In this document: one piece after another, positions 789-16,816 of the stretch | Position numbering within the stretch: position 1 is the stretch's first letter | How the letters are laid out: every line of letters starts with the position of its first letter | Virus record (IMG/VR): IMGVR_UViG_3300025806_000029 | Span: 1-58,115 of that record | Direction: 5' to 3' (one strand) | DNA length: 58,115 nt | DNA from: a virus | Lineage: Duplodnaviria; Caudoviricetes | The notes under the pieces: model-generated | Told to the model about the DNA's origin: nothing | Database searches by the model: none | What the model saw: the letters and a program-made list of their open reading frames with translations, nothing else | Position numbers and translations under genes: made by a program

Positions 789-811
789 ACGGGGCGAGAT
801 TACCCCGCCCC
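782..811 (-). terminator. Intrinsic terminator after the 849-1568 gene
   Basis: GGGGCG/CGCCCC stem followed by a U8 tract on the minus strand. Confidence 0.65.
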
Positions 812-845
812 ATTTTATCGCATGTTCTCGCATGTATGTAAAGCG
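812..845 (-). promoter_or_regulatory. Probable DUF932 promoter with tandem CATGCGA boxes
   Basis: TTTACA...TAAAAT on minus strand; tcgcatg at 818 and 828 (10-bp spacing). Confidence 0.5.
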
Positions 846-1568: not shown

Positions 1569-1755
1569 CGGTCAGCACCTCCCGCACAAAAACGGTGTCC
1601 CGTTCGCCCGGGTGGTCATAACAAAGCCGCGCATATGTCAGCGCCTCGTCAAGCGTGTCGTATTGGCGGGGCATCGGCTTTCCGAGTCGGACAATTTCCC
1701 ACGCGGTCGGACCGGTCGGGTTTTCTAATCGTTTGAATCGAACACTCTTATACAT
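1561..1755 (-). CDS. Hypothetical early protein
   Basis: ORF 1561-1770; GGAG RBS favours ATG at 1755; overlaps the start of the next gene. Confidence 0.6.
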   Translation of the reverse strand: MYKSVRFKRLENPTGPTAWEIVRLGKPMPRQYDTLDEALTYARLCYDHPGERDTVFVREVLTDA

Positions 1756-1770
1756 TTGGTTTCTCTCCAT

Positions 1771-1830
1771 GGTATGGGTTAACTCCCATACCTTAGCGCA
1801 AGAAAAAACCCGGCGTCAATACCGGGTTTA
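1771..1830 (-). promoter_or_regulatory. Terminator hairpin overlapping a sigma70 promoter and palindromic operator
   Basis: AAACCCGG/CCGGGTTT stem plus U tract; TTGACG-N18-TAAGGT; palindrome GGTATGGG-ttaact-CCCATACC at 1771-1792. Confidence 0.6.
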
Positions 1831-1837
1831 ATCTTTT

Positions 1838-1951
1838 TTAATAACCGCGCCGCCGCGTTCGTCGTCGCATTGCACGCGGCGGTTTGGCGTTCGCGTACTT
1901 TTTCCAATCGGGGCCGTATAACAGGCGGCCTAGAATGCTAAAGAGAAACAT
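1838..1951 (-). CDS. 37-aa small protein (not in ORF track)
   Basis: MFLFSILGRLLYGPDWKKYANAKPPRAMRRRTRRRGY; TGATG coupling to the upstream gene. Confidence 0.55.
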   Translation of the reverse strand: MFLFSILGRLLYGPDWKKYANAKPPRAMRRRTRRRGY

Positions 1952-2205
1952 CACGCGGCCTCCGTCTCGGGCAAAACCTTACAGTCCCAAACATACTCGC
2001 TTTGGTTTTCCACCCCGACAAATTCCAAGTCACGATCTTGGCGCAAACCCCAAATGAAATCGGGGTCGCTTTCAGCATCCGGCACAAGGTTTCCATAAAG
2101 ATCAAAGTCCGCTCCAAACCGGTCTTTATCGTGCGGGTCGGACAAGTCTATTTCAGCGACGTGCGTCTCTAAGTTAACTTGCTTGATTTCAATTCTAATC
2201 TTCAT
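1951..2205 (-). CDS. Hypothetical acidic protein
   Basis: ORF 1951-2256; AACCACGGAGA RBS favours ATG at 2205. Confidence 0.65.
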   Translation of the reverse strand: MKIRIEIKQVNLETHVAEIDLSDPHDKDRFGADFDLYGNLVPDAESDPDFIWGLRQDRDLEFVGVENQSEYVWDCKVLPETEAA

Positions 2206-2335
2206 CGCTAAATTTCTCCGTGGTTTTGCGATTGATGCAGGATTGAACGAAAGCAATGCCCGCGAATATCACGAATCCTGTCCACGCGATAATAAGGTAA
2301 TCAACGGCAAAGCTGGTAATGGCGTCATACTCCAT
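2195..2335 (-). CDS. 46-aa single-TM membrane protein (not in ORF track)
   Basis: MEYDAITSFAVDYLIIAWTGFVIFAGIAFVQSC...; GGAGG RBS; its own promoter lies upstream. Confidence 0.55.
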   Translation of the reverse strand: MEYDAITSFAVDYLIIAWTGFVIFAGIAFVQSCINRKTTEKFSDED

Positions 2336-2840
2336 GTCTTAGTTCCTCCGTAAGGTTTATAGACTCGCCGTTTATATGCGACCTTATCGGACATATCAAC
2401 CCCATAATTTCGTCCCAGTCATAGGGCGCTTCGACAAACAGGTCTGGCGGGCAGTCGGTGCCTTCCATCCTAACGTCGATAGCCTTAGACGCGTGGTAGA
2501 CCCGGACGGTATCGGTCTGCTTCGCTTTCGACTGGCGGACCAGTATCCACGCGCTACCGTTCTTGTGCAGGTCCAGCCACGTAACTTGATGCGGCGATAG
2601 CTCCACGGCCCTGCCACCAGTGTGCTTCAATTCGACAAAATGAAAGAGCCCTAGCTCGTCCTGAATTACAACGTCAGGAACCCCGGGCGTCGCCCACGTC
2701 TCCAGCCTCGTCATCGTCAGCTTCCGGCTGCTCTTCGATATCCCCTCCTTCATCGTCTTCCACAAGCCGCTCTCGCGCTTTGCTGCGGTTTGCGGAATTG
2801 TCCGGCTCTTCGGGAGTGATGTCGATGGTAATCGGGGCAT
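2325..2840 (-). CDS. VRR-NUC / PD-(D/E)XK nuclease (Holliday-junction resolvase-like)
   Basis: E...GVPDV...FVELK...LSPHQ..W motif. Confidence 0.8.
   Translation of the reverse strand: MPRLPSTSLPKSRTIPQTAAKRESGLWKTMKEGISKSSRKLTMTRLETWATPGVPDVVIQDELGLFHFVELKHTGGRAVELSPHQVTWLDLHKNGSAWILVRQSKAKQTDTVRVYHASKAIDVRMEGTDCPPDLFVEAPYDWDEIMGLICPIRSHINGESINLTEELRHGV
2371..2399 (-). promoter_or_regulatory. sigma70 promoter inside the 3' end of the nuclease gene
   Basis: TTGATA-N17-TATAAA with a TATGCGA box overlapping the -10. Confidence 0.6.
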
Positions 2841-3336
2841 AGCTTTGTTTTATATCCTCTAAGGCTTTCAGTACTTCGTCTTTGGACATGGAGTCTATCG
2901 ACCCATGACGAATCTCGCTTTTGCTAACGTAGATGTCGCCCTGCGCTTGACCCCGCCGATACTCGGCTTGGACCGCCGCGCTGTACGCGCCATTTTGAAG
3001 TGCCATGTCTCGGATCGTTTGCAGGTCGCGCAGGTGCCGTTGATAGGTGACGCCGAACTTAACGTCTAGCTCGTCCCGGTACGCTCGGATGGCGGCTACA
3101 ACGTGCGGAGAGCGGTCAGGGTTGGTAAGTTCGTACGCCCGGCTATGGGCACTGCTGGCAGGGTAGCCCGCGTTTATGGCGGCCTCCCGGAGCGTTATCT
3201 GACCATCCTTACTGACCAGTTCTTTGACAAACAGTTCCTGCTTGCGGGTCAGGGTGGTCTTGGTGCTGACCTTTTTCCGGCCCCTCGTTTCAACCCAATC
3301 CGGGTCGTCAGATTTGCGGACAGTCTTGCGCGGCAT
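2674..3336 (-). CDS. terS: Terminase small subunit
   Basis: LTRKQELFVKELV...EAAINAGY...AHSRAYEL..NP, the typical TerS N-terminal HTH. Confidence 0.8.
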   Translation of the reverse strand: MPRKTVRKSDDPDWVETRGRKKVSTKTTLTRKQELFVKELVSKDGQITLREAAINAGYPASSAHSRAYELTNPDRSPHVVAAIRAYRDELDVKFGVTYQRHLRDLQTIRDMALQNGAYSAAVQAEYRRGQAQGDIYVSKSEIRHGSIDSMSKDEVLKALEDIKQSYAPITIDITPEEPDNSANRSKARERLVEDDEGGDIEEQPEADDDEAGDVGDARGS

Positions 3337-3385
3337 GGCGGGTATCTTTCAATAGTTAATCCGCACTAGTCTTGCCACAAAACCG

Positions 3386-3608
3386 CCTATATATATAGGG
3401 CCAAAATCAGATTTTTTTCGAAAACAAACTGCTCGCGCGGGTCACGTGGAATATTCCATGGAACACATGGAACAGAATCGGGTACACATGGAACAGACTT
3501 TGTTATTCAATTACAGCGGGTTACTCTTTTCTGTTCCGTTGTTCCACGTGTTCCACGCTAAAAATTTTTTTTTCAGAAAAAAATAATTTCAGCCCTATAT
3601 ATATAGGG
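3386..3608. other. Origin-like (or packaging) site with inverted iterons
   Basis: Bounded by CCTATATATATAGG palindromes; (CA)TGGAACA x3 on the left faces TGTTCC(A) x3 on the right; flanking A/T tracts; non-coding. Confidence 0.6.
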
Positions 3609-3740
3609 AGAACTAAAACTGATCTCTGAGAAGAACCGTGGGCCGTGATTGGTGGTCTCTAGCTAGCTAGCTTCGGCATCGTTTTAACTCCAACCTGTTA
3701 AGAGGCCCGTGGGCCGTGATTAGTGGTTACTGATTAGTGG

Positions 3741-4142
3741 TTAAGCTGCGTTCTCGTTCTTTTCTATCCAGTACGCGACATCCTCTTCAATGTCGCTAGC
3801 TGTCTGGTCCATCCATTCTTCGTGGTCTGGATGGTCTGGACCCATGTCGCCTTTTTTCATCGGCTTGATGGTTCGGCCTTTACAGAAGAACAACCCTATC
3901 GGGGTTGGCCTCTCTTCCGGCGTGGCTTGGTAGGTGAAGCCGCCCAGCGGGCCGCAGTTTAGCGTTTCGCTCGGGCCGTACATTACCATGACGGCGACGC
4001 CGTTCTTGGTGGCTTGGCCCCCGCTGTTTGACGCCGCGTCTTTGATAGCGGTGATCGGGTCGCGGGCCTTGGCCCAGCCTCCGTAGCTCCCGCCTGTAAT
4101 GGCAAAGAAGGTACGTCCGTTTTTAAGTGTGTGGTCTGTCAT
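3741..4142 (-). CDS. Hypothetical early protein
   Basis: 133-aa ORF with AACCATGGAG RBS. Confidence 0.7.
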   Translation of the reverse strand: MTDHTLKNGRTFFAITGGSYGGWAKARDPITAIKDAASNSGGQATKNGVAVMVMYGPSETLNCGPLGGFTYQATPEERPTPIGLFFCKGRTIKPMKKGDMGPDHPDHEEWMDQTASDIEEDVAYWIEKNENAA

Positions 4143-4241
4143 TGAGTTACTCCATGGTTAATGGTCCACGGGTCACTCAACAGGTTGGTTTCTTATTTAC
4201 AATGAGAAAGAGCCGGGCGCTTTTGTGCCTCTTTATTATGT

Positions 4242-4290
4242 ATTATAATAAAGCATCTTATCCCATATGTACATGCGACATAGTGTCGCA
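4242..4290 (-). promoter_or_regulatory. Promoter with TGCGACA-tag-TGTCGCA palindrome
   Basis: Palindrome at 4274-4290, TCCCATA at 4261, TATAAT-like -10 at 4242-4250. Confidence 0.55.
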
Positions 4291-4309
4291 CCCTAAGTCA
4301 CTGATTTCA

Positions 4310-4453
4310 TTACGTTTTACCTGATCTTAGGTGCCTAAGATAATCATACATTTTTTTCGAGAGTCCGCACTTTTCGCAAGTCGGGAATTTTTTGCCGTAC
4401 CGGTCGGACACTTCTCGACCGGTGAAACCGCAGGGCGTTTTTTCTGCTTCCAT
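4310..4453 (-). CDS. 47-aa small Cys-containing protein (not in ORF track)
   Basis: MEAEKTPCGF...CEKCG...; GAAAGGT RBS. Confidence 0.45.
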   Translation of the reverse strand: MEAEKTPCGFTGREVSDRYGKKFPTCEKCGLSKKMYDYLRHLRSGKT

Positions 4454-4578
4454 AAATCTACCTTTCTTTTCGAGGGAATAATGCCTGCCACCACATGGCG
4501 GGAGGGAACATGTAAAAGACGCGCCAAATTTCGTCCCAAGTGTGGAACTGAGAACGCCGACGGCGGCTTATAAGCCCG

Positions 4579-5118
4579 TTACTCATTTTCCGGTTTCCAT
4601 TTGTTGGGGTTGACGTTCATCGTCCAGTTGAAAGCTAGGGTCATGCGTTCGTCGGGAGCCGCGGGCACCGAATGCCGCAGCGAGGACGGTAAGGTGAGGA
4701 CGTGGCCTCTGAGGTTGTTAAAAACAACGTCGCCCGCGAATATATGACTGGGGCCAAAATATATTATCGTGGCGTAATCCGTCCCTTCGGCAACGTGGGC
4801 GTGTTCGGTCACGCTTTCTCCCGGCTTTAAAAGGTTACCCCAAGCGTCAAGGATGTTAATGCCGGTAAAATTAGGCTCGTTAAATATATTCGACGACAGA
4901 AGTTGCTCCCCGAACATTCCGACATATTCGTGGAAAACCGGATCGTTGTTAAAGTGCCTGAAGTCGGTCATCTGGCCTCTTACGTTTGTGACGTAATCCA
5001 TTGGTCCGACGCCCTCGCGGATAGCTCTTTCAAAATGTTGAAGATGGGGCTCTGATGGAACGTAAGCTCGAACTACCTCGGTAGGCGCGTTGATCCAGTG
5101 CTTTTCAATAACTTCCAT
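4579..5118 (-). CDS. Putative 2OG-Fe(II) oxygenase (TIGR02466-like)
   Basis: WGN...HAH...LRHSVP...RMTLAFN; AGGAGG RBS before ATG 5118. Confidence 0.75.
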   Translation of the reverse strand: MEVIEKHWINAPTEVVRAYVPSEPHLQHFERAIREGVGPMDYVTNVRGQMTDFRHFNNDPVFHEYVGMFGEQLLSSNIFNEPNFTGINILDAWGNLLKPGESVTEHAHVAEGTDYATIIYFGPSHIFAGDVVFNNLRGHVLTLPSSLRHSVPAAPDERMTLAFNWTMNVNPNKWKPENE

Positions 5119-5119
5119 T

Positions 5120-5308
5120 TTACCTCCTGTAGAGTTGAGGGGAGGGCCAGTAAGTAAACCCTCCCCCCGATAGTGCGGTTGCAGCCTTAACCTCCAAATG
5201 CGCCAACGACACGGCGGGAACCCGGGGTTTTGACGGACGTTTAATCCGCAGGACTGCTTCATCGCTTTCGCACCGCTCGGCGAAAGCTGAGTATGTGGGC
5301 TCCTCCAA
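5120..5308 (-). CDS. Hypothetical protein
   Basis: 62-aa ORF filling the gap exactly between its neighbours. Confidence 0.4.
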   Translation of the reverse strand: MEEPTYSAFAERCESDEAVLRIKRPSKPRVPAVSLAHLEVKAATALSGGGFTYWPSPQLYRR

Positions 5309-5309
5309 A

Positions 5310-5642
5310 TTAAAAGCGAGGGGCGGCTCGGTAATCGTCTAGCACCTCAACGTCCTGTTCCCGAAGAGCGGGCTTTTCCCTTTCGTGCCGGTGCTGCTCG
5401 TCCAGCCAAGCCGCATATTCGGCCTCTCGCCGATAAAACTTCTCTTCCTCCCACGCGCACTTCGCGCAAATGTAGAATGGAAATTCCCCGGTAATCGGAT
5501 CAGGATTTTCGTACCACCGGCTCTCTGCTTTCGAGGCTGCCGCCCCGCAGTTTTCGCAGTGCGTGTCGAGTTGACCCTTACTGCTTCGCCCTTTGATAGG
5601 GGCTAAATCGTAGCCCCAGCCAATGTTTAAACGACTAGGCAT
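5310..5642 (-). CDS. Zn-finger hypothetical protein
   Basis: CENC...CAKC; GGAGA RBS before ATG 5642. Confidence 0.6.
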   Translation of the reverse strand: MPSRLNIGWGYDLAPIKGRSSKGQLDTHCENCGAAASKAESRWYENPDPITGEFPFYICAKCAWEEEKFYRREAEYAAWLDEQHRHEREKPALREQDVEVLDDYRAAPRF

Positions 5643-5650
5643 GTCTTCTC

Positions 5651-5839
5651 CTATATAACCCATTCAACCTTTGAACATTTCTGTTCCAGTTCCGTGGCCC
5701 GTGAACGGAGGCGCTCGGCCTCTGCTTCGTCGCCACCGGTCCATTCTTCGTCTGCTGCACGTTCGCGCAGCTTACGGACTAGATACTCGTTCGTTACGAG
5801 GGCCAGCCCGAGGATGTCTGCCGCACTTCTATTCGACAT
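5651..5839 (-). CDS. Hypothetical protein
   Basis: 3' part of ORF 5651-6058; likely start MSNRS overlapping the upstream gene's end. Confidence 0.5.
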   Translation of the reverse strand: MSNRSAADILGLALVTNEYLVRKLRERAADEEWTGGDEAEAERLRSRATELEQKCSKVEWVI

Positions 5840-6110
5840 ATTCCACCAACCAATCGTTTTTATCGTTTGTTGCATCGCAGGCGCTGCACTGGAGCGCTGA
5901 CCACGCGAAGTGATATACCTCGGTCCACGCGCCGCAGTCCGGGCAGTATATTTTTTTAGGCTTCTTACCGGCCCGGGTATAGCGGTTGACGTTCGTAAAT
6001 TTCTTCGGCTCTTTTTCCAGAAACTCGGAGATCGCTTCGCCGCGCTTATCGTCGTCAAACGATAAAACGCGGTTTAGCATCTTCCGCCAAAAACGAAGCG
6101 GGTCCATCAT
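5829..6110 (-). CDS. Zn-ribbon protein
   Basis: IYCPDC...VYHFAWSALQCSAC. Confidence 0.7.
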   Translation of the reverse strand: MMDPLRFWRKMLNRVLSFDDDKRGEAISEFLEKEPKKFTNVNRYTRAGKKPKKIYCPDCGAWTEVYHFAWSALQCSACDATNDKNDWLVEYVE

Positions 6111-6346
6111 TTGCGCCCCCGCAGCCTGTCAAGCTCATCAGAGGCCGGTGGGAGACTTTCCGCCGGTGCAATTTCGGCGACGTGGTAGAGCGTTTCCATC
6201 TTCTGGGATATGAGCGACTCAATTACCTGCCGACGGCTAAGTTTGATAATCCCGGTTTTAATCTCAAGGTTGGTGCGGATTTCGTCTAGCATTTCTACTG
6301 TCGCCTTGGGCAGAACAATCGTTGTTCCCGCATATTTCTTGTCCAT
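6107..6346 (-). CDS. Putative ribbon-helix-helix DNA-binding regulator
   Basis: TTIVLPKATVEMLDEI...LSRRQVIESLI pattern; has its own promoter and operator. Confidence 0.55.
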   Translation of the reverse strand: MDKKYAGTTIVLPKATVEMLDEIRTNLEIKTGIIKLSRRQVIESLISQKMETLYHVAEIAPAESLPPASDELDRLRGRK

Positions 6347-6370
6347 AATAATCTCCGTGGTTAATTGAGG

Positions 6371-6405
6371 TATGGGACATTACTGGACATCCGCAACCCG
6401 GTCAA
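6371..6405 (-). promoter_or_regulatory. sigma70 promoter with TATGGGA box
   Basis: TTGACC-N17-TAATGT; box at 6371-6377. Confidence 0.6.
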
Positions 6406-6415
6406 CAGAAAACGA

Positions 6416-6982
6416 CTAAAACGGAATCCAATTAAAATTTATGACTCGCCGGTACGGCACGTCGGTCGCGGTCCAAGATCCGTGGCGCACGAAGGCGGGG
6501 AAGGTAACCAGCCGATTAGCCACGGCGTCTACTTTTTTTCCGCCTTCAAACTCGGTAGGACCGTCGCACGTGTCTAGGTACAGAATACCGGTCACGCATA
6601 TATCTTCCCGATGAGTGTCTGTATGAAACCCGCCGAAAAAAGAAGTTTCCCCGGAGTACGTCAACAAATTTACTTTAGCGCGAACTAAAATAAAGGGGTC
6701 AATTTCTTGTAAAACCGGCGCAATAATTTTTGCAGGCTGCGGACAGTCTTCCCGCGCCCGGTCTCCTAGCTGACCCATAACATCAAACGGTATTTCTAGC
6801 GGCTCATGTTGGTATAAAACGTGAGAAAACTGGTTGTTTCGTAAGTGAATTTCTGGACCGAGTTCCGCGACGTTTGAAAGGTGAAAACCCCACGGAAATC
6901 CACCGCCCGGATGAAGGGCGCTTTTTAAATCAAAGAAAACCTCGTCATTCAAAAAGTTTTCAAAGATTTTAATCTCCGTCAT
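6416..6982 (-). CDS. 2OG-Fe(II) oxygenase
   Basis: FHTD...YLDTCDGPT...NRLVTFP...RHGS...RRVINFNW. Confidence 0.8.
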   Translation of the reverse strand: MTEIKIFENFLNDEVFFDLKSALHPGGGFPWGFHLSNVAELGPEIHLRNNQFSHVLYQHEPLEIPFDVMGQLGDRAREDCPQPAKIIAPVLQEIDPFILVRAKVNLLTYSGETSFFGGFHTDTHREDICVTGILYLDTCDGPTEFEGGKKVDAVANRLVTFPAFVRHGSWTATDVPYRRVINFNWIPF

Positions 6983-7775
6983 TTTTATCGACTATTTGCT
7001 CTTTCGTAAAAAGGGCGACGTTCCCTGCGATTGATCTGCGGTCCCGTTCCGGCTGCTGGTCAGAGTTGATTGTTTCCTTGTAAGGATAGACCATGTGGTT
7101 GAGCCAATGCGGGAATATAACGAACCGGCCCGGCTGCGGGTCCATGGTCATCACTTTCGAGGTTCTAAATTCAGCGTGTGAGGTTTGAAGCGTTGGACCG
7201 TTAACAAAGGTCAGGCAGCCGTCCAGTTGCCGAGAAGCGCTCTTCAGGTTAACTGCTTCCGAGTTACGCATATTTTCCGGCACTCGCGTCCAGTAAACAA
7301 AGCTTAAACCAGCAGCGGTGCGTTTGCCGTGATCGTGAATTGGGTTGTAGTCACCGGGCAGACTGTCAACCACCCAAGCTTCGTAGCAGTTCGCCGCGAC
7401 GTAAGGACAGTTAGGGTCTTCTTGCGAGGCGTAGAACTGCTGAACGTACTGCATAGCCATGGACTCGGCGACCCCGTAAACACCGTGAAACGGGTCGCAG
7501 TAATCTTTGTCGAGATATATCTGCTCGCCTTCGTTGATTTGACCAACCAGTTGGTCTGAGAAATCTACCTGCTCCTTTTGAAGCTTTATCTCATCGATTT
7601 CATGGTTAACTCCTTGGTTAAACCAAAAAGGTAATGTGGTCTCCAACACAAAAAAATCGATAATCGAATGTGCTTTTAAGTCGGCAGAAAAATTACCCTT
7701 GTAGTTGCGATGCGCCTGTCCGACGTCGCGCCTAACCACCTTCCGTTCGTCAGCGGATGCTTGAGCCCTATCCAT
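6969..7775 (-). CDS. 2OG-Fe(II) oxygenase (TIGR02466-like)
   Basis: GDYNPIHDH...IFPHWLNHMVYP...RRSIAGN. Confidence 0.8.
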   Translation of the reverse strand: MDRAQASADERKVVRRDVGQAHRNYKGNFSADLKAHSIIDFFVLETTLPFWFNQGVNHEIDEIKLQKEQVDFSDQLVGQINEGEQIYLDKDYCDPFHGVYGVAESMAMQYVQQFYASQEDPNCPYVAANCYEAWVVDSLPGDYNPIHDHGKRTAAGLSFVYWTRVPENMRNSEAVNLKSASRQLDGCLTFVNGPTLQTSHAEFRTSKVMTMDPQPGRFVIFPHWLNHMVYPYKETINSDQQPERDRRSIAGNVALFTKEQIVDKNDGD

Positions 7776-8520
7776 CGTTTTGTTCTCCCATGTCTTTTTC
7801 GTAGCATTCTAAAAAAAGGTTTTTAGCCGTACCAGCGCCAGCGAAAACTGTTTCAAATTCTCGGTCCAAATCTGCGGCGTAGTTCGAAGCGAGAGACAGG
7901 ACTGCCTGAGTTGTCACTACCTTTGCAATCTCCTCCGCGGTGTCGGGCTCTTCCGGGAAATCAAGCGTAAGTGCTTCGATTAACCTCCTTGCCCAATAAG
8001 CCTGTACTGATTCGTGCAGGCTTAACTTCACATCGTCTATAAAGTTTTGAAAATACGGTCCAGACAGGTCCAAGGGGTCGTGCGGCTCGACCTTTACCTC
8101 GTCTCGAAAATCTCTCAAACGTATGACGTTGTCGAGAGGCACGGCATCGTTGTCTTCTTGGTTGGCAACATGAATCGCCATCAAGGCTCTTTGGAGTTTA
8201 AGGTCTGATATCTTTAAAATGTTTTCTTCACGCGGAAGCGGCATTGTCCCAAACCTAAAGGCTAGCTCTTCCGCTTTTTGCCCTATCAAATCCCGAACGC
8301 GGAAGCGGTCCTCTTCGTTTATAAGTGGAAAAGGGTAGCTCGTTGTGCCGTAAACGGCATGAAAGAGCCCGGCAAGCGCAATGTCGAAAGGTTGGTCATC
8401 CCTAAGCAGAATGTTGTACGTCCCCACAAGGTGGTCATACAGGGACTGTTCGCCGTGAGAATGTTCCTTACACCCCAACTCGTCTAAAAAACCAAACAGT
8501 TTTTTTTCTGTTTTCCCCAT
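7768..8520 (-). CDS. DUF6817-like (HD-fold-like) protein with C-terminal extension
   Basis: HS...LYDHLVGT...AGLFHAVYGT...VRDLIGQKAEELA..F. Confidence 0.7.
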   Translation of the reverse strand: MGKTEKKLFGFLDELGCKEHSHGEQSLYDHLVGTYNILLRDDQPFDIALAGLFHAVYGTTSYPFPLINEEDRFRVRDLIGQKAEELAFRFGTMPLPREENILKISDLKLQRALMAIHVANQEDNDAVPLDNVIRLRDFRDEVKVEPHDPLDLSGPYFQNFIDDVKLSLHESVQAYWARRLIEALTLDFPEEPDTAEEIAKVVTTQAVLSLASNYAADLDREFETVFAGAGTAKNLFLECYEKDMGEQNDG

Positions 8521-8525
8521 CACAG

Positions 8526-8678
8526 TCACTCCATGTCAACAGTGTCGCTGGCCCACACCGCCTCCTCTTGAATAGGCTCGTGGTCCGCGGGCCGGTCTGC
8601 GTAGATCACGGCCATTACTTTTTTAAGCTCTCCTTCTGCATCAATAATCGTTATCGGCAGCCTCGTTTTTACAGTCAC
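8526..8678 (-). CDS. 50-aa hypothetical protein (not in ORF track)
   Basis: GTG start overlapping the upstream TGA; GAGGTG RBS. Confidence 0.45.
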   Translation of the reverse strand: MTVKTRLPITIIDAEGELKKVMAVIYADRPADHEPIQEEAVWASDTVDME

Positions 8679-8887
8679 TTCTTCACCTCTTTTATGTCGT
8701 CTGCGTCAGGATAATCTCGACGCACGTCTTCAATATTTTCGTACATCGATTCGTAAAGCGTCTCTTGACCCTCGCCGTAGCAACTTGGGCACAGGCTGCG
8801 TATTTCCAGCGTCTCGCTGGCTTGTCGGGCTAGCTGGCCGAAACCGTCGCACTCTCGGCAGCGAACGGTTACCTCAAACGGCGGCAT
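8675..8887 (-). CDS. DnaJ-type Zn-finger small protein
   Basis: CRECDGFG...CPSCYGEG. Confidence 0.7.
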   Translation of the reverse strand: MPPFEVTVRCRECDGFGQLARQASETLEIRSLCPSCYGEGQETLYESMYENIEDVRRDYPDADDIKEVKK

Positions 8888-8943
8888 TAGCCGAAAACGA
8901 CGCGGAAAAAATTCTGAAGAAAAATAGTGATAAGCTGTTCCAT
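8887..8943 (-). CDS. 18-aa hydrophobic mini-protein
   Basis: MEQLITIFLQNFFRVVFG; AGGAGG RBS; TAATG coupling to the next gene. Confidence 0.45.
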   Translation of the reverse strand: MEQLITIFLQNFFRVVFG

Positions 8944-8952
8944 GTCTTCCTC

Positions 8953-10089
8953 CTATTTAAATGCGGGCCCGGTTACCCACCCCACGAGGGAGTGTCTGGT
9001 GCCCTTAGTTACGGGGGTTACTTCATGCAGCGCATAGCTTGGAAAGAAAGTGATAGCGCCTTGGTCGCGCTCTATCCGCTTAGGGTCAGGACTATCGTGT
9101 ATAAGCAAGTCGCCCCCTTCGTAGCTTTGCGGCGGGGATAATTGAACACTAAAACTTAACTTTCGATGCTCCAAAGTTTTAGGGTCAGAACTGGACCCGT
9201 CTACGTGTTTTCCGTAAAACCCGCCGTCGCCACAATAAGTGGTGAATTGAAGAGATTGAATATTACAAAGGTCGAAACAAAAAAAACTTTCGTTAGTTTC
9301 AAGGACTTCCCCGCACAACAACTCAAACAACCAATGGTTTTTTTCGTTGCTTGAATAGAGGAACTGAGTCGTTGAGGTTCGAACATTGTGGTTGACGCTT
9401 CCGTTTCCGTTTCCCACGGCGGCGTCTTGGGGCAGAGAAGCGCGGTCCTCTTGAAGACAAGAAGAGATGATTTCCTCGCATTGAGTAGCGCTTAAAACCC
9501 CTCTTTTTTGACTGATAAAAGCAGTTGAGGTAGAGGATAAAGCCCAACTAAAAGTCCTTTGTTCGGGAGGCTCTTCTTCTAAAGCCTCTTCCTCTAAAGC
9601 CTCTTCTTCTTTAAACGCAATTACGCACTCAAAATGCCAGTCTTGCGGTACAGGACTCCTTTTATACGTAAACTCGTCGTTAAAAAAAATTGCGGTGCCG
9701 GGCCGCATAAGTATTTGTCCGCCGTGTTCGGTTTCTATTATCCAGTCCGTCCAGACGCCAGAGCAGTGGCTGGCAAGACAGACTTTAAGCCAGTACAGCT
9801 TTCCCTCCTTCGAGGATCGCGGTCTCTTATCGGCGGGGTTTTCAGAACCGTACAAAAAACATTCAGTCGAAACGACCGAAAGAGCCTTCGGCTTCTCCGA
9901 AAAGAGTGTTTTTCCCAACTTTTCCGCGGCCTGCTCAGCGTACGGCAAAACTTCAGGAGCGTTCAATATTTGAGGAGATCGCATTTCCGCGTTACCACCC
10001 CCAGACACAGACAAAAGCTGGCGAACAAGGTTTCCGCGCTCATCACTTTTGATGAGTTCCTGCATTTCAATTATAATAGCCTCGGTCAT
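8953..10089 (-). CDS. Prolyl-4-hydroxylase-like 2OG-Fe(II) oxygenase with extra N-terminal domain
   Basis: C-terminal YGKHVD...RKLSFSVQLS...YEGGDL...FPSYALHEVTPVTKGTRHSLVGW; (EEEAL)n linker. Confidence 0.85.
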   Translation of the reverse strand: MTEAIIIEMQELIKSDERGNLVRQLLSVSGGGNAEMRSPQILNAPEVLPYAEQAAEKLGKTLFSEKPKALSVVSTECFLYGSENPADKRPRSSKEGKLYWLKVCLASHCSGVWTDWIIETEHGGQILMRPGTAIFFNDEFTYKRSPVPQDWHFECVIAFKEEEALEEEALEEEPPEQRTFSWALSSTSTAFISQKRGVLSATQCEEIISSCLQEDRASLPQDAAVGNGNGSVNHNVRTSTTQFLYSSNEKNHWLFELLCGEVLETNESFFCFDLCNIQSLQFTTYCGDGGFYGKHVDGSSSDPKTLEHRKLSFSVQLSPPQSYEGGDLLIHDSPDPKRIERDQGAITFFPSYALHEVTPVTKGTRHSLVGWVTGPAFK

Positions 10090-10289
10090 TCGTCCGGCTT
10101 TCCGGGTTCGATGCTGACGTTTAGTACGGCCAGCTTTGCCGCCATTCGCCCGTGATCCAAGATCATTTTGCGGACCATCTTGCGCGGTAGACCGACGTTT
10201 TTTGAACGACCTTTTTGCGAGATAGCAGCAAGCTCGTGGTATTCGTCTTCACTTGTGTAGAGCTTCATCCTCTTTGAATCCTCTTCCAA
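10086..10289 (-). CDS. Hypothetical protein
   Basis: 67-aa ORF overlapping both neighbours. Confidence 0.55.
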   Translation of the reverse strand: MEEDSKRMKLYTSEDEYHELAAISQKGRSKNVGLPRKMVRKMILDHGRMAAKLAVLNVSIEPGKPDE

Positions 10290-10447
10290 GCAGCCCGGAG
10301 AGCCTCGGCTTTAAGAAAACTTTCAGGGTCTTTCAGCCCCCCGTGATCCTGTAGGCGCTCGGCCTCCGTGCGTACCGCCTTATCGACCCACCTCAAGGCG
10401 GTGGACCAGTCTTGGACCTCTTCCGTTGCGTTTAAGTAGTCGCTCAT
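10265..10447 (-). CDS. Hypothetical protein
   Basis: 60-aa ORF with AACCAAGGAG RBS; first gene after its promoter. Confidence 0.65.
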   Translation of the reverse strand: MSDYLNATEEVQDWSTALRWVDKAVRTEAERLQDHGGLKDPESFLKAEALRAAWKRIQRG

Positions 10448-10474
10448 ATCAATCTCCTTGGTTAAAGATTACCC

Positions 10475-10503
10475 CTTATAAACTCCCATACAAAGACCGT
10501 CAA
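10475..10503 (-). promoter_or_regulatory. sigma70 promoter with TATGGGA box in the spacer
   Basis: TTGACG-N17-TATAAG. Confidence 0.75.
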
Positions 10504-10504
10504 C

Positions 10505-10587
10505 AAAAAAAACGCCCTCGCACAGATGGGACGGTGCGAGGGCGCTTCAACCACGGAGAGACGGTCAAGAACTACACTCCTTAACCT
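10505..10587 (-). ncRNA. Candidate trans-acting sRNA with anti-RBS seed
   Basis: Promoter TTGACT-N17-TACCCT (10594-10622); 5' hairpin; unpaired UCUCUCCGUGGUU; terminator CGCCCUCGCAC/GUGCGAGGGCG plus U8. Confidence 0.6.
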
Positions 10588-10618
10588 CGATAAAGGGTAT
10601 GCGAGAACCTCGCGTGAG

Positions 10619-10840
10619 TCAATTACTAAGTCCGCCAAAAATTTCGGAGTCTTTACACTCGGGGCAAATGAACATGCCTTTTTCAACAACCCTTATCTCT
10701 AGGCAAGTCAGGCATCTTCGACGCTCGTGTGTGCCCCTCTCTATCTGGGTATCTTTAAGTCTTTTTTGTTTTTCGGCTGAGACCATTTGTAAAACACGTG
10801 CTGGTTTATTTGAACTACGCGGGATTTTGTTGACGCCCAA
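10619..10840 (-). CDS. Small Zn-finger protein
   Basis: RRCLTC...FICPECK. Confidence 0.55.
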   Translation of the reverse strand: MGVNKIPRSSNKPARVLQMVSAEKQKRLKDTQIERGTHERRRCLTCLEIRVVEKGMFICPECKDSEIFGGLSN

Positions 10841-11553: not shown

Positions 11554-11590
11554 AAAAAACCCCGCCGGAGAGGTCAATAACCGGCGGGGT
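11554..11590 (-). terminator. Intrinsic terminator after polA
   Basis: ACCCCGCCGG/CCGGCGGGGT stem plus U tract. Confidence 0.8.
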
Positions 11591-11621
11591 AAGTTTGCGG
11601 AGGTAACAAGCGGAGAAGGGA

Positions 11622-13514
11622 TCACTCCGCTTCGCCCCAGCTAGCGCCAATCTCAATGTCGCATCGACTGGGGACGTCCAAGTCTATCGCATTTGTCATT
11701 AGGTTTGCAATAGATTGTGCCTCTTCCTTTCCTGTAACAGAAACCGCTAGCTCATCGTGAATCTGAATAAGCGGAATCTTTCCGGTCCGGTACACGTCCA
11801 CCATGGCCTGCTTCGTCATGTCCGCCGCGGACGCCTGAATAAGCCGGTTGAGCGCCTTGTAGGTGTAGGCTCGCTTCAGCCGAGTGGTTTGACCGTACTG
11901 GCGCACCGCCTCGTGATACGGCAGTGCCTTGTTCATCTCAAACGAGTCGGGCTCCCACAGGTCAAAGCGACACTTACGACCCTTTAAGGAGCGGATAGCA
12001 CCAAAACTCCCCTTGTCGTTAAGGCGGTCTGTCACGCCTCTCATCAGCATTTTCACAAAGGGGACGCGTTGGTGATATTGGTTTATAAGCTCCTTCGCCT
12101 CTTCTAGCGGGATGTCTAACTGGTCTGCCATCTTCTTAGCACCCATGCCGTACATCATGCCGAGGTTGATCGTTTTCGCCTGCTTACGACTGATCTGAGC
12201 CATATCGGCGACCATAGTGTGAAAGTCCATTGTCGGGTCGTTGCGATAGCCGTCCACGAACTCTTCGACGCCGCGCAGGGGAAGACTGCGGCTTTTACCA
12301 AACACTGAGGCATAGTGGACCAAGATCCGTGGTTCCTGTTGCGAGAAATCAATTGAGGCCCACTTTTCGCCCTCTTCCGGCAAAAACAGACTACGGATCA
12401 TCGGCCCTAGTTCAGGGTCTCGCGCAGGGATTTGCTGAAGGTTTGGGTTATTCATCGATATGCGACCCGAGACCGTGCCTCCGTCGTCGGACCGAATCTG
12501 GTTTATGTGACCGTGGATGCGACCATCGTCTCCGACGTGCTTCATAATGCTGCTGATAAACGTACCCTGAATCTTGTTCAAGGCCCGTGCATCGACAACC
12601 ATCTTAGCCAGAGGGTGTTCGTGTGCGGTTAAAAACGCTTTCGTAAAGCTGGGAGCGCCGGTCGCCGTCCTTGGATACGACACCGAAAGTTTATCAAAGG
12701 CGTCCGCCAGACTTTTGGCTGCCCAAATTTCAACGTGATTTCCAACCAGTTTTTTAATTTCCCTGACGACGTTCTTTTCCCGACGGATCAGGGCGTCTCT
12801 CGTTTTTGCCGCAGCATCCAAGTCCACCCGCACTCCTCGCGAGGTCATGTCTACTAAGCAAGGGAGAAGGGCTAGTTCCAGATCAACAATTTCTTGCAGC
12901 CCCTCCTGCCCTACCTTTACCTTGAAAAAGTTCCAGAGTTCCAAGGTCAATTCAGCGTCCGTCTGGGCATAGGGCCCGACGTGCATGGCGGGGAGCTTCC
13001 ACATCTCAGCCTTCGGGTCTAGCCCAAACTCTCTCGCCGCAGCGATAAGGTCTTTCTCCGACTTAACCTTATCCAGATAGTCATAGGCGACAGAGTTAAG
13101 CGAGAACGAACGACGGTTCTCGTCAAGCAGGCTAGCGACCACCATCGTGTCGATGATGCGACCGTTGACCTCAATACCGTGCGCCCGGAGCCAGCCCACG
13201 TCGTATTGGGCGTTATGAAAAACCTTGTCTGCATTGGTGGCGCAGACTTTCTTCATCCAGTTCTCAACCAGCCGACGGTCTAGATTACCTCCTCCGGTGT
13301 GGCCTATAGGGTAGTAAGCGCACCAACCGTCTACCGCGACCGCGTATCCGACGACCTCGCCGTTGTTAACGGGCCAGCCGGGGCCGCGTTTCATAAGGTC
13401 CGGGTCACGTGTTTCAAGATCGATTGCGATTTGCTTAGCGCCCGACAAGTCCGGAAACTCCGACGGTGGAACCCACTCGCTATCCGGCGCAAACATAGCC
13501 ATCTGTAAACTCAT
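11622..13514 (-). CDS. polA: DNA polymerase family A with 3'-5' exonuclease, no 5' nuclease
   Basis: ExoI DLET, HNAQYD; TVSGRIS..NPNLQQIP; motif A DFSQQEPR; motif B KTINLGMMYG; motif C QIHDEL. Confidence 0.97.
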   Translation of the reverse strand: MSLQMAMFAPDSEWVPPSEFPDLSGAKQIAIDLETRDPDLMKRGPGWPVNNGEVVGYAVAVDGWCAYYPIGHTGGGNLDRRLVENWMKKVCATNADKVFHNAQYDVGWLRAHGIEVNGRIIDTMVVASLLDENRRSFSLNSVAYDYLDKVKSEKDLIAAAREFGLDPKAEMWKLPAMHVGPYAQTDAELTLELWNFFKVKVGQEGLQEIVDLELALLPCLVDMTSRGVRVDLDAAAKTRDALIRREKNVVREIKKLVGNHVEIWAAKSLADAFDKLSVSYPRTATGAPSFTKAFLTAHEHPLAKMVVDARALNKIQGTFISSIMKHVGDDGRIHGHINQIRSDDGGTVSGRISMNNPNLQQIPARDPELGPMIRSLFLPEEGEKWASIDFSQQEPRILVHYASVFGKSRSLPLRGVEEFVDGYRNDPTMDFHTMVADMAQISRKQAKTINLGMMYGMGAKKMADQLDIPLEEAKELINQYHQRVPFVKMLMRGVTDRLNDKGSFGAIRSLKGRKCRFDLWEPDSFEMNKALPYHEAVRQYGQTTRLKRAYTYKALNRLIQASAADMTKQAMVDVYRTGKIPLIQIHDELAVSVTGKEEAQSIANLMTNAIDLDVPSRCDIEIGASWGEAE

Positions 13515-13744
13515 TTTTCTCTCCGGGGGCGACGCTGTACCCTTTTTCGTTGAACGCGAACTTTCGGCTTTACTGTCTCGTCTCGGGGTATTCGTCTACG
13601 CACGGCTTTCAAAAGATCTTCGGAGATAATCATTGCAGTGCTTGTTGAAATAGGCACCAAGAAATCGATGCCTTTGGTTTTATCAATTACCCGAAACTGA
13701 ATGGGCTCTTCGGGACTCGTGTCGTAAGGAATTATTAACGTCAA
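13511..13744 (-). CDS. Hypothetical protein
   Basis: 77-aa ORF with 4-nt overlaps on both sides. Confidence 0.55.
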   Translation of the reverse strand: MTLIIPYDTSPEEPIQFRVIDKTKGIDFLVPISTSTAMIISEDLLKAVRRRIPRDETVKPKVRVQRKRVQRRPRREK

Positions 13745-15318
13745 AACGAGTAGGCCTCCTTTGATGATTCCGGCGCAACGAGAAAGAGGTTTTCCTTCGT
13801 ACGGGTGACTCCAACGTAAAAAGTCCGGTGCAGGTCGTTACTGCCCGCCACGTCCCTTGCTGCCTCACGAAGAGCGGCATAGCTACAGTCCGTGTACAAG
13901 ACCACGTTTCGGGCCTCTCCGCCCTTAGCTCCGTGGATTGTTGAAACGGTAATCCGAGGTTTTTGCGACAAATCTTCTCCTCGCCGCTCAGCCGCTTGAA
14001 GGTAAACAAGCTGGTTCTCTGGCGCTTTTGTCAGGACCGCGGGCCACGGTTCGTCTTTCGAAACCATAAGACCCTGTGCCTCGACCAGTTCATTATAGTC
14101 GATTTCGTCGTCGTCTTCGACATTAGGTAGTGTTTTAAAGCCCCTCCGAACCCCGTGGCCGACGTCAAGAAATGAGTACATCTTTCGCGCCTCCGAACCC
14201 GCCACCTGTTCTCCTCGCTGTAAGGCCTTCCAACAAAGAACCGCATCAATCAGCTTCTGGCTAAACCGCGTCTTGCCGTGCTTAGTGTCAAATAGGTAAC
14301 CGGAAGACCGCAGCAAATTAATTGCGTTCTCCAGCATGTAATTGCACTGGCCGAGAACGAGCCAGTCACCATCGGCCATGTCATTCAGTATCGACTCGAT
14401 ACCGTTAATGTACTGCACGGAGCCTTCAATACCCTGCGGCTGGTATACCTTGGGGAGCCGCCCTTCTACCCGCGAAACGACATTCTCGGCAAGGGCGTGG
14501 ACCTTTCGCGGAATCCGCCAGCTTGTCGCCAAAACCTCGGACGCCCCTTCAAGCCCTAAGAACTGCTCAACATCCGCCCCAGCCCATCGGAATATGGCCT
14601 GATCGTCATCCCCCGCCACAATTACGCGGTTAGCGGTTTTCTCGGCGATCTTATTGACGACGTGCCACTGAATTTTGGATAAATCCTGCGCCTCGTCAAC
14701 GAAGACTGTATCAAAGGTCGGGCAGGTACTGTCTGCCAGTTCAAGAAACAGCAGGAGCATATCCGTAAAATCAAACCGGCGTTCTCCAGACTTGTAGTCC
14801 TCGTAAGCTCGGCTGAGGTAATCGACCAGCGGCCAAGGTTGGTTATTGGTAATCCCCCACTCCTCGTACGCCTGTCGCAATGGGATCTCTTTGACCTTCG
14901 CCATATTTATCAGGCCCATGACCGTTTCCTTGTTCGGCAGGGCGACCCCAAAGTTTTCGGAGTCGGGGTCGGTCGCGGTCGCTTCAAACTCAAAGCCGGT
15001 CAACGCTGAGATGTCCCGCCAGTTCTCCGTGTCCATTAGCTGGTCAAACTTTATACCGCTGTGCATAAAACAGAAACTGTGAAGCGTCCGAAAATAAGGC
15101 AGGTCGTCGGGGCCCATGTTAAGTCGTTCTAGCGCCCTGTCGCGAGCCTCGTAGGCCGCCTTCTTAGTAAACCCAAAATAGCCGATGCGTCCGGGGGCTA
15201 CACCGCTATCAATAAGGTCGGCAACCATGTTTATCAAATGAGTAGTCTTGCCCGTTCCGGGGGGTCCGAACACGCGTAAAAATTTAGAAGGGGATGTCAT
15301 CCATCTCTCCAGTGGCAA
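13741..15318 (-). CDS. UvrD/Rep-like SF1A helicase
   Basis: GPPGTGKT, RTLHS, VDEAQD, GDDDQAIF, STIHGAKGGE, YVGVTR. Confidence 0.93.
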   Translation of the reverse strand: MPLERWMTSPSKFLRVFGPPGTGKTTHLINMVADLIDSGVAPGRIGYFGFTKKAAYEARDRALERLNMGPDDLPYFRTLHSFCFMHSGIKFDQLMDTENWRDISALTGFEFEATATDPDSENFGVALPNKETVMGLINMAKVKEIPLRQAYEEWGITNNQPWPLVDYLSRAYEDYKSGERRFDFTDMLLLFLELADSTCPTFDTVFVDEAQDLSKIQWHVVNKIAEKTANRVIVAGDDDQAIFRWAGADVEQFLGLEGASEVLATSWRIPRKVHALAENVVSRVEGRLPKVYQPQGIEGSVQYINGIESILNDMADGDWLVLGQCNYMLENAINLLRSSGYLFDTKHGKTRFSQKLIDAVLCWKALQRGEQVAGSEARKMYSFLDVGHGVRRGFKTLPNVEDDDEIDYNELVEAQGLMVSKDEPWPAVLTKAPENQLVYLQAAERRGEDLSQKPRITVSTIHGAKGGEARNVVLYTDCSYAALREAARDVAGSNDLHRTFYVGVTRTKENLFLVAPESSKEAYSF

Positions 15319-16816
15319 CGGGCGATAAGACCGCGGCTGGTTGAACCGAGAACGCAGGGATTTTGTAGACGCTCACTGTTTCACTGCTTACGCGAAGTTT
15401 TGAAGCCTCTCCGCCAATTTCGCGGAGCCTTTGCGCCAACTTGTGGCGCTTATACTCAAAAAACTTATTTCGTTGCAAGAAACTTTCGAGGTCGCGAAGC
15501 CGAAGATAGGTAACCGAACTGGTTTCATCGGTCCACGGCTTGCCGAGATGTATCTCGTCCCGAGACTGTGCCGTCTGATGGTTGATGCAGAAATCGCGAA
15601 GATATTCGTAAAAGATACCTCTGGTCGATTCTTCCTCCGCTACCGGAATAACTGCGGCGCTGTTGTCGCGAAGCTCTCCCAGCAGGGCCGCGATCCGTGA
15701 TTCCCACGTGTTCTTCGTGGACGACGGCGGCAGGAAGTTTATCTGCTCCATACACGCTTTCTGAAAGGCGGGCTGCGATAAGAGGCCATCACTATCCAGT
15801 TCGATTGGCACCCCGTTCACGTCTAGAAACCAGACCGGGGGCTGGCTATCGTACTTACGCAAGTTTGCCATCGCTGCCGACGCCGCGCCGCCGACGCCGA
15901 ACTTCCGGGTCAGGCACGTGGGCCGGTCGCAGTACGAGTTTATCGGCGCGTCATTGCACTTGTAGGCGTAGTCTTTCTTTTTCAACTGATTGACGACTAT
16001 ACCGATTTCCGTCAACCCAAGCGGCGGGTTCAGATAAGACATGTTCCACTGCATCAACTCCGTTTCCCAGCTATCCGGGTACGCCTTCTGCAAGTAGACC
16101 CCGATGTTAAACAAGCCGTTGTTTCGGCCACCCTCCGAGATTTTTTGGGGTAGCAGGGTTTGTAGGCACGGCGGGCCGTCCACCAAAAAGTCTTTCTTCT
16201 CGGTCACCGAAAGCGCGGTAACCTGCTCCGGGGTCTGGCCGCGCTCTTCGCAAAGAGCAAGAAACTCCTCCAAAGTCGCGGCGCTTCCATCAACATTAAA
16301 AGCGTGGCGTAGGCTATCTTCGTGCCCGAAATACGGCAGATTAATTGCCGAACCTACGTCGCCGCGCTCTACGTTGATAACCTCCTGCTTTGGGAATATC
16401 TCCGCATCGCCCCACCCCATCGCCGCTGCAATTTTTCGCAACGCTTCTCGCATCTTGGATGCGGGCATCCACTCTTTACAAAAAAGATAGCAGTGCGCTC
16501 CGCCGCTTTTTGAGCGGTCCACGATTAGCGGCAGCTTCTTCTCTTCGAAAAAATCAATCAGCTTTTTGTGGTCGAGGGGGTACTTGTCGATGTCAATGCA
16601 CCCAAACCGCACGTTCGATTCCGCGTTCAGCAGAAAGACCCCGATACTTGTTTCCCCATCCAGATGACCGCGGTATTGCTCCTCGGTCAGCGGCTCTCTT
16701 TTCGTTTGATATGACGCTTCGTTCTTTCCCGAACCATTGACGGCTTTGGGCACCATTTCCAAATATACGGAATCGAGGCCTGAAAAGAACGACGCAAATT
16801 TCTTTACGTGTTCCAT
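15284..16816 (-). CDS. AEP-superfamily primase with PriCT-like domain
   Basis: CIDID, RSKSGGAHCY, PPC...EGGRNNGLF; no P-loop helicase domain. Confidence 0.85.
   Translation of the reverse strand: MEHVKKFASFFSGLDSVYLEMVPKAVNGSGKNEASYQTKREPLTEEQYRGHLDGETSIGVFLLNAESNVRFGCIDIDKYPLDHKKLIDFFEEKKLPLIVDRSKSGGAHCYLFCKEWMPASKMREALRKIAAAMGWGDAEIFPKQEVINVERGDVGSAINLPYFGHEDSLRHAFNVDGSAATLEEFLALCEERGQTPEQVTALSVTEKKDFLVDGPPCLQTLLPQKISEGGRNNGLFNIGVYLQKAYPDSWETELMQWNMSYLNPPLGLTEIGIVVNQLKKKDYAYKCNDAPINSYCDRPTCLTRKFGVGGAASAAMANLRKYDSQPPVWFLDVNGVPIELDSDGLLSQPAFQKACMEQINFLPPSSTKNTWESRIAALLGELRDNSAAVIPVAEEESTRGIFYEYLRDFCINHQTAQSRDEIHLGKPWTDETSSVTYLRLRDLESFLQRNKFFEYKRHKLAQRLREIGGEASKLRVSSETVSVYKIPAFSVQPAAVLSPVATGEMDDIPF

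Follow-up and report, generated by a model that had tools for sequence, protein, structure and literature searches.

Most of what is known of gene control by phage-encoded small RNAs (sRNAs) comes from a handful of temperate coliphages and a single vibriophage, where it is mostly directed against host genes. The c4 RNA of phages P1 and P7 is released from an operon transcript that also contains its target; it controls a single operon (ant) and functions in lysogenic immunity. The RegA protein of phage T4 shuts off a group of early phage mRNAs by repressing their translation at the ribosome-binding sites (RBSs). RsaE/RoxS are host-encoded RNAs of Firmicutes with UCCC motifs in loops, and in the icaR type an anti-Shine-Dalgarno (anti-SD) motif in the 3' untranslated region (UTR) pairs with the RBS of the same mRNA. 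Here we analyze an element on the minus strand (10622..10505) of IMGVR_UViG_3300025806_000029, a viral contig of 58,115 bp in IMG/VR that is rated complete and is referred to as the window over its whole length. Comparative sequence alone points to an RNA that uses a private RBS code to control a group of genes of the phage itself. We consider it likely that the element is a small regulatory RNA whose unpaired stretch, the seed, pairs with private extended RBSs, most likely blocking translation.

The nearest precedents are c4 of P1/P7, VpdS and lambda PreS (PMC12197685; bioRxiv 10.1101/2024.10.31.621285). The likeness to c4 lies in a short phage RNA that uses short complementary blocks against the RBS region of a phage mRNA and blocks its translation, and in a specificity that differs between related phages as RNA and target change together (PMC12197685). 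Unlike c4, the element has its own predicted promoter and several target RBSs, with the Shine-Dalgarno (SD) core included in the pairing, and it lies in a genome in which no integrase was seen. No Rfam c4 match was obtained in the window, in seven related loci or in a permissive scan, which gives no sign of homology to c4. VpdS of VP882 and PreS/LPR1 of lambda are also small phage RNAs with an intrinsic terminator that base pair with mRNAs (PMC12197685; bioRxiv 10.1101/2024.10.31.621285). These RNAs are Hfq dependent and regulate mostly genes or sRNAs of the host, whereas the predicted targets of the element are the phage's own RBSs with a lineage-specific extension. An unpaired C/U-rich motif that would pair with the SD region of many mRNAs also recalls the C-rich anti-SD sRNAs RsaE/RoxS; the Rfam RsaE model gives 17.3 bits on the element against a threshold of 79, and it is therefore not a member of that family. 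In contrast to T4 RegA, the repressor here would be an RNA and the target signature a defined SD extension. Literature searches on phage sRNAs at SD regions or early genes, on phage HTVC023P and on the motifs found no description of the element. The words sRNA, small RNA and noncoding are absent from two papers on the phage group, one of which is also without terminator, Shine-Dalgarno and ribosome binding and the other also without intergenic.

The original prediction had described a self-contained minus-strand unit, and its parts are present from the promoter-like hexamers to the U8 tract, as defined by sequence and fold. The promoter-like P1 (10594..10622), recognized from sequence, consists of TTGACT (10622..10617), a 17-nt spacer and TACCCT (10599..10594), with a start predicted from sequence near 10588; TTGACT overlaps the TGA stop (10621..10619) of a 73-amino-acid (73-aa) zinc-ribbon open reading frame (ORF). 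A sigma-70 consensus scan did not list P1, which matches just 8 of 12 consensus positions. Downstream, the fold gives a 9-bp 5' hairpin with a 6-nt loop (10563..10586), formed by GGUUAAGGA (10586..10578) and UUCUUGACC (10571..10563), followed by the unpaired seed GUCUCUCCGUGGUUGA (10547..10562), identified by fold and conservation, with its core UCUCCGUGGUU (10559..10549), the complement of the RBS motif. The unit ends in an intrinsic terminator (10505..10546) with an 11-bp GC-rich stem, an 11-nt loop and U8, its core CGCCCUCGCAC/GUGCGAGGGCG spanning 10544..10513 and the T8 tract 10512..10505. The same terminator also closes the upstream polymerase/hydrolase operon. Positions 10590..10497 fold with −43.2 kcal/mol (z = −5.06; 0 of 200 shuffles as stable), and the seed is unpaired in the predicted fold of the 88-nt terminated form.

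Relatives of the unit are referred to below by clade (A to D, A being the closest) or class (E to G). At the unit in clades A to D, the layout TTGACN-N17 is found with TACCCT, TAGGTT, CATATT and TAGGTT, respectively, and promoter-like hexamers with 16- to 18-nt spacing occupy the same place in clades A to D and in classes E, F and G. The −35 element of clade C sits 7 nt past the stop codon, and coding constraint thus does not account for its conservation. An operator box had also been claimed in the spacer of P1; it amounts to a 5-bp inverted repeat that is kept in clade A only.

The element is non-coding and has no conserved ORF. Its sole ORF, of 22 aa from a TTG, loses its start and is frameshifted in contig L002, and two extra nucleotides 3' of the seed give a different frame in clade B, for which reasons a small-ORF reading was rejected. 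The AAGGAG in the hairpin, which with this TTG had been named as a possible translation start in place of an RNA, changes to AAGAAG or AAGGAT in relatives, and that alternative fails. A plus-strand RBS reading was rejected as well, there being no start codon in range 3' of the motif. At gathering scores, Rfam showed no family at the element in the window scan or in the seven related loci, and a permissive scan of 10350-10750 gave chance-level matches only. The element is also found in DNA contigs of three of the four runs compared over positions 1-14000, with 0 letters differing from the window; the contig pieces that span it are X7 9578-12171, X15 10029-11737 and X19 10132-10753, and no listed X17 piece does so (end at 10438). 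The contigs thus add no variant, and none of the runs listed for 9000-14000 is an RNA run.

Within the window, the target matches lie at the positions originally claimed, all on the minus strand in the gene block downstream of the element. The core is exactly complementary to AACCACGGAGA at two RBSs, and another three or four can be matched if G:U pairs or a single mismatch are allowed. One of the two perfect 11-nt matches (6352..6362) precedes a 79-aa gene (6346..6107) that is the first after a promoter TTGACC-N17-TAATGT; here 13 pairs form with G:U, the duplex energy is −21.6, and the orthologue ranks top in genomes G003 and G001 and in L144. The other (2215..2225; −20.3) precedes an 84-aa gene (2205..1951). 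The RBS AACCAUGGAG(U) (4149..4159) of a 133-aa gene (4142..3741) forms 10 pairs with one G:U (−19.8); ACCAYGGAG is present in 11 of 14 orthologous leaders of this gene, and AAAAGGAG or GGAAGGAG in L132, L133 and L141. For the 64-aa gene (1755..1561), whose RBS is ACCAUGGAGAGA (1762..1773), the duplex has 12 pairs, one of them G:U, and an energy of −22.0; the leader GTTAACCCATACCAYGGAGA is retained in relatives even where the following gene changes. The nearest candidate target belongs to a 60-aa gene (ATG 10447) preceded, within 10445..10503, by promoter P2 (TTGACG 10503..10498, N17, TATAAG 10480..10475), which begins one base past the U8 of the element, and by the RBS AACCAAGGAGA (10463..10453); this duplex has one central G/A mismatch and reaches −16.1, or −19.5 with the longer seed. 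Two candidates are weaker: CAUGGAGA (772..779) at the DUF932 gene, with 8 pairs and −15.2, whose orthologue in clade D has the RBS AUCAAUGGAGA, which fits the clade D seed (−18.4), and CCACUGGAGAGA (15304..15315) at the UvrD-like helicase gene (15300..13741), with a 1-nt bulge and −20.9, whose clade B orthologue has AACCACCGGAGAG. The polymerase RBS (−18.3), which like that of the helicase lies further upstream, fits partly, as does the helicase RBS.

AACCAYGGAG occurs exactly four times in the window. The three copies on the gene strand (2216-2225, 4150-4159 and 6353-6362) each lie 6-10 nt before an ATG, and the single copy on the opposite strand (10549-10558) is the seed. With up to one mismatch there are 14 matches, compared to 6.48 ± 2.55 in shuffles, 1 of 100 of which reached 14. 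All six RBS-positioned CCANGGAG sites fall within 10463..1762, in line with the claim that late-gene RBSs are without the extension, and the upstream cassette RBSs inspected are also without it (AAAAGGAG at a 59-aa gene and GCAAGGCAGG at the hydrolase). A site AACCAAGGAG at 7619..7610 was dropped, since it precedes just a 5-codon ORF within a 268-aa oxygenase gene. Of the five motif genes, four stand first after a promoter-like site or an intergenic region, and one is internal. The original prediction had counted a putative repressor among the targets; the six RBS-bearing target genes scanned with Pfam and PHROGs show no repressor-like domain, and a scan of nine other window ORFs and the clade C zinc-ribbon protein gave helix-turn-helix (HTH) matches in the clade C protein only. 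The label "early" for the target genes is a guess from gene order. A 220-aa ORF in the block (2674..3336, minus strand) has a sub-threshold match to Terminase_2, the terminase small subunit (E = 6.6e-5; 24.0 bits; cut-off 26.1), and the block would thus not consist purely of early-type genes.

Homologous units are found in L002, L084 (G003), L128, L093 (G001), L094 (G002) and L144. In a five-sequence alignment, 11 of 11 columns of the seed core are invariant compared to 10 of 34 between the −10 hexamer and the seed, and this invariance spans contigs whose neighboring zinc-ribbon protein shares just 56-61% identity. The 5' stem is kept by register shifts in L002 and L084 (clade A), clade B has a different 6-bp hairpin in place of the 9-bp one, and clades C and D also have hairpins of their own. 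An intrinsic terminator is present in every clade, its stem kept with G-U changes in relatives and different in clades C and D. Orthologous genes head the target ranking in the window (G000), G003, G001 and L144. A terminator-anchored metagenome scan returned four contigs with one new variant (L128) and an unchanged seed; a match of L083 to the 17-nt seed pattern in IMG/VR was discarded as a chance hit in an unrelated coding region. In a simple scan downstream of the polymerase, HTVC023P and DSL-LC04 showed no such element or RBS flavor, the polymerase 3' UTR of DSL-LC04 containing just an anti-SD-like UCUCCUC. A natural control is provided by L132, which spans polymerase to DUF932 and carries the 133-aa gene at 88% nucleotide identity in an otherwise distant genome: there the RBS of this gene is an ordinary AAAAGGAG, and both the extended motif and the element are absent across its 12 kb.

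Related uncultivated phage contigs, from marine and freshwater samples, show the same architecture in no fewer than seven seed classes, between which the hairpin and terminator sequences differ. Seed and RBS flavor correspond as GUGG with CCAC/CCAU (window clade), AUUG with CAAU, GUAG with CUAC/UUAC, and UCCCGUAG with CUACGGGAG. This covariation of seed and RBS extension across related genomes supports the proposed pairing of the seed with an extended RBS that genes of the phage itself have in common. In clade D (G005), the unit lies 3' of the hydrolase gene and consists of TTGACG-N17-TAGGTT, a hairpin, the unpaired GUUCUCCAUUGUUAAAGCC and a terminator. Exact complementarity links the core of this unit, UCUCCAUUGUU, to AACAAUGGAGA, the RBS flavor of G005, which occurs there as AACAAUGGAG at two exact sites and also as AACAACGGAG, all RBS positioned. 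Clade C (G004 and three near-identical contigs) has its unit 3' of a GcrA-like zinc-ribbon gene, with TTGACA-N17-CATATT, a hairpin of its own, the unpaired UUCUCCAAGGUUGUUGAG, its own terminator and U8. Clades C and D both retain UCUCC-NN-(G/U)GUU despite unrelated hairpin and terminator sequences. In clade C (G004; L123 11320-11360) the 5' hairpin is itself an anti-SD/SD pair (CUUCUCC..GGAGAG), and the RNA has two UCUCC copies.

Five genomes were compared for the number of start regions that form 10 or more contiguous pairs with the 11-nt core. For the GUGG core of clades A and B there are 5 of 89 in the window, 5 of 60 in G003, 3 of 62 in G001, 3 of 36 in G004 and 0 of 81 in G005; for the AUUG core of clade D the counts are 0/89, 0/60, 0/62 and 0/36 in the first four and 3/81 in G005, and for the AAGG core of clade C they are 0/89, 0/60, 1/62, 0/36 and 0/81 in the same order. 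In a wider group, with a polymerase ∼70% identical, many loci show a CCCATA-box promoter together with a hairpin, (U)CUCCGUAGUUGA and a terminator, and their RBSs read (C/U)UACGGAG (for example, UUUAACUACGGAGG). When RBS-like GGAG sites were sorted by the preceding 4-mer, the GUAG seed class (16 sequences; 268 sites) had 23 CTAC, 9 TTAC, 0 CCAC and 0 CCAT, and the GUGG seed class (5 sequences; 213 sites) had 1, 3, 9 and 7, respectively. A further class combines the seed UUCCCGUAG with GGGAG as the SD. The 18 sequences with gene-strand YYCCCGTAG only, one of which is the window with coding-region matches, have 24 CTACGGGAG RBSs and 1 YTACGGAG, and the 28 with gene-strand CTCCGTAG only have 0 and 39; sequences with neither gene-strand seed (36) have 0 and 6, and those with both (2) have 0 and 0. 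In a class matrix of 9-mers with G:U pairs allowed, seeds match RBSs of their own class at 18 of 181 (E), 10 of 87 (G), 24 of 243 (F), 23 of 213 (AB), 3 of 99 (D) and 0 of 53 (C) sites, and the F seed has 0 matches in any other class. The polymerase tree has AB, C and D as sister groups and F in at least two separate clades, a placement that calls for several concerted switches of seed and RBS.

A number of observations weigh against a small RNA directed at these sites. Perfect 11-nt complements to some start region are common in the window, where 39 gene-strand 11-mers qualify; the seed is the sole one of the 39 that matches two start regions. The raw duplex energy of the seed is unexceptional, at least 15 of 450 CTCC-containing 16-mers, GC rich, being better, and ranking by this energy was set aside as unspecific because GC-rich windows win. 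When shuffles preserved CUCC and composition, 0.2% of 1,000 were as good as the seed, and with the longer seed 1.75% of 400 CUCC-preserving shuffles were as good in the window. In favor of the seed, its match to the start regions of its own genome exceeds that of 98.25% (A), 100% (B), 99.75% (C) and 100% (D) among 400 CUCC-keeping shuffles per clade. The case from the window alone is suggestive, not compelling. In G001, two of five orthologous RBSs have drifted off the motif with the seed intact. Specificity is asymmetric, the GUGG seed also fitting E-class RBSs (20 of 181) via G:U. The four contigs of clade C are discordant: their seed is UCUCCAAGGUU while their RBSs still read CCAC/CCAT/CCAA with 0 of 53 matching 9-mers, and the AA at the center of the AAGG seed faces AC, AU or AA; a good fit lies at a different RBS of their own, CUCAACAACC-gau-GGAGA (10+5 pairs; −25.1). 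Seed and RBS flavor are thus matched in four classes and discordant in one. Loci within a class are kin and their counts are not independent, which makes about three concerted switches and one discordant switch the honest tally. The element and the target block also adjoin and could move together by recombination, and the gene starts come from a simple purpose-made caller and are crude.

Three other explanations bear on these data. The seed could work within one molecule, as a cis-acting leader or insulator that on read-through pairs with the RBS of the following gene or with a private RBS further along the same polycistronic RNA, such genes being translated only from their own promoter. Minimum-energy folds of the read-through RNA do pair the seed with the downstream RBS in clades A and C, and this RBS keeps AACC..GGAGA flanks around an irregular center in clades A, B and C. 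In classes E, F and G the unit stands directly before the RBS of the next gene with no promoter between and could equally be a terminated leader, a point to be added to those above. In clade B, however, the minimum-energy fold is without seed-RBS pairing, and the downstream RBS of clade D (GAAAGGAGAAC) is without the extension. Read-through of a terminator with 11 GC-rich pairs and U8 should be rare, the dedicated promoter is conserved, and one seed cannot cover three to six matching RBSs in cis; we regard a leader of this kind as distinctly unlikely.

The fit to phage RBSs might instead be incidental to an ordinary 3' UTR and terminator, in which the anti-SD-like stretch is kept for terminator context, as a chaperone or RNase site or for pairing with host mRNA. 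Such a view draws on the unremarkable duplex energy, on the frequency of single 11-nt start-region matches by chance and on the CU-rich anti-SD stretches that also occur in the polymerase 3' UTR of the window and its relatives, but it leaves unexplained both the co-switching of seed and RBS flavor in several lineages and the seed as sole 11-mer matching two start regions, and it seems to us very unlikely. Covariation is, on the other hand, compatible with a DNA operator, because seed and RBS motif are the same duplex as DNA: a phage DNA-binding protein would bind AAC(C/U/A)AYGGAG, the seed would be an inverted copy, and the copies would change together as protein specificity drifts, much as other operator-like boxes (CCCATAC) recur at promoters of the group. 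Every sense copy, however, includes GGAG and has the SD spacing to a start codon, the unpaired region between hairpin and terminator is invariably where the one inverted copy is found, and the motif is not a dyad. Furthermore, clade C pairs via a 2-nt bulge and clade-specific flanks, and in class F the UUCCC opposite GGGAG is a wobble in RNA but a mismatch in DNA. We therefore hold an operator to be most improbable.

Taken together, anatomy and relatives indicate that the element is genuine, conserved and non-coding and that its seed and a private RBS extension evolve together, and pairing of the unpaired stretch with the extended RBS is the best-supported step of the mechanism that we propose for a small regulatory RNA. 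A host-type promoter would start an RNA of ∼80-85 nt at the foot of the 5' hairpin, and the strong intrinsic terminator would end it; the same sequence would also form the 3' end of transcripts from the polymerase/hydrolase operon. Between the hairpins, the core would pair with the private SD extension AACC-AY-GGAGA, predicted to mark the RBSs of a subset of downstream genes, with weaker sites at DUF932 and the helicase. The duplex would block ribosome binding, turning the gene block down once the RNA accumulates, and it is the covering of the GGAG core that suggests repression. Three features favor action in trans: a dedicated promoter that is conserved, a strong terminator and, in each genome, several RBSs that match. 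We infer that the RNA is made, acts in trans and represses, as we do its timing; it may also depend on a host chaperone (Hfq).

If the flavors behave as predicted, they would offer a set of orthogonal riboregulator pairs, and unusual RBS "dialects" in phage genomes can signal RNA regulators. A bolder proposal, which we rate as unlikely, is that the diverging flavors (GUGG, AUUG, GUAG and CCCGUAG) are orthogonal pairs, with the SD extension as an address label and the sRNA as a master switch, and form an RNA-based code of heteroimmunity or competition among lytic aquatic phages. If true, flavor pairs would decide which co-infecting relative is silenced, comparable to P1/P7 c4 but on many RBSs.

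The genes of the window lie nearly all on the minus strand, among them those with Pfam matches to terminase (55513..54065), portal (50877..48424), AEP primase (16816..15284), UvrD-like helicase (15300..13741) and family A DNA polymerase (13514..11622). No RNA polymerase was found among ten large window proteins scanned with Pfam. By polymerase, the closest cultured phages are DSL-LC04 and the pelagiphages HTVC023P and HTVC027P, at just 48-57% identity, and a megablast of 9500-13500 against cultured phages gave 0 matches. For the related HTVC027P, every early gene is described as without known function and the phage as using the host RNA polymerase (PMC12753301). The window ends (1-788 and 57328-58115) are 86.2% identical over 789 nt, and the overlap suggests that the genome is probably circularly permuted; the 86.2% match would reflect either strain variants joined in the assembly of a circular genome or a terminal repeat that has diverged. 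The DUF932 gene, with its RBS and preceding hairpin, is present as two diverged copies, one per window end, because the ends overlap. In its leader (840..760, minus strand), TTTACA-N17-GATAAA is followed by a 14-bp terminator-like hairpin with U8 (816..786) and then the RBS, an attenuator-like arrangement.

Other features adjoin the element or its candidate targets. A palindrome GTATGGG-N6-CCCATAC (1791..1772, minus strand) lies in the promoter/leader of the 64-aa gene, with half-sites in the spacer of P2 (10491..10483) and near two other promoters (6376..6369 and 10603..10596), and relatives have (A/T)TCCCATA(C/T) right after the −35 of the small-RNA promoter; the palindrome looks like the operator of a phage transcription factor. 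In the polymerase 3' UTR (11604..11554, minus strand), a further anti-SD-like stretch, ACCUCCGC, immediately precedes the terminator of that UTR (11589..11560, U6), and (U)UCCUCCC is found at this place in L026, L030, L032, L038, L041, L042, L044, L046, L050, L065 and L077; it may be a second conserved element. Around the 133-aa gene, a 26-nt inverted repeat (3690-3715/4163-4188; 85%) flanks the gene and a 66-nt AT-rich inverted repeat (3386-3451/3542-3607; 76% complementary) occupies the gap after it. Given the presence of this gene, at 88% nucleotide identity, in the otherwise distant L132, the 133-aa gene may be a mobile cassette or adjoin an origin. The 73-aa zinc-ribbon ORF upstream of the element (10840..10619, minus strand) matches the C-terminal part of a 107-aa clade C protein (L123 10970-11290), the N terminus of which has a match to HTH_7 (E = 3.6e-5) and a weak one to GcrA (E = 0.0036); the GcrA-like domain hints at an alphaproteobacterial host. 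Finally, an Rfam Mu-gpT-DE RNA motif (66.8 bits; threshold 49) was observed at 43336-43388 on the minus strand, between structural-region ORFs of 301 aa and 160 aa.

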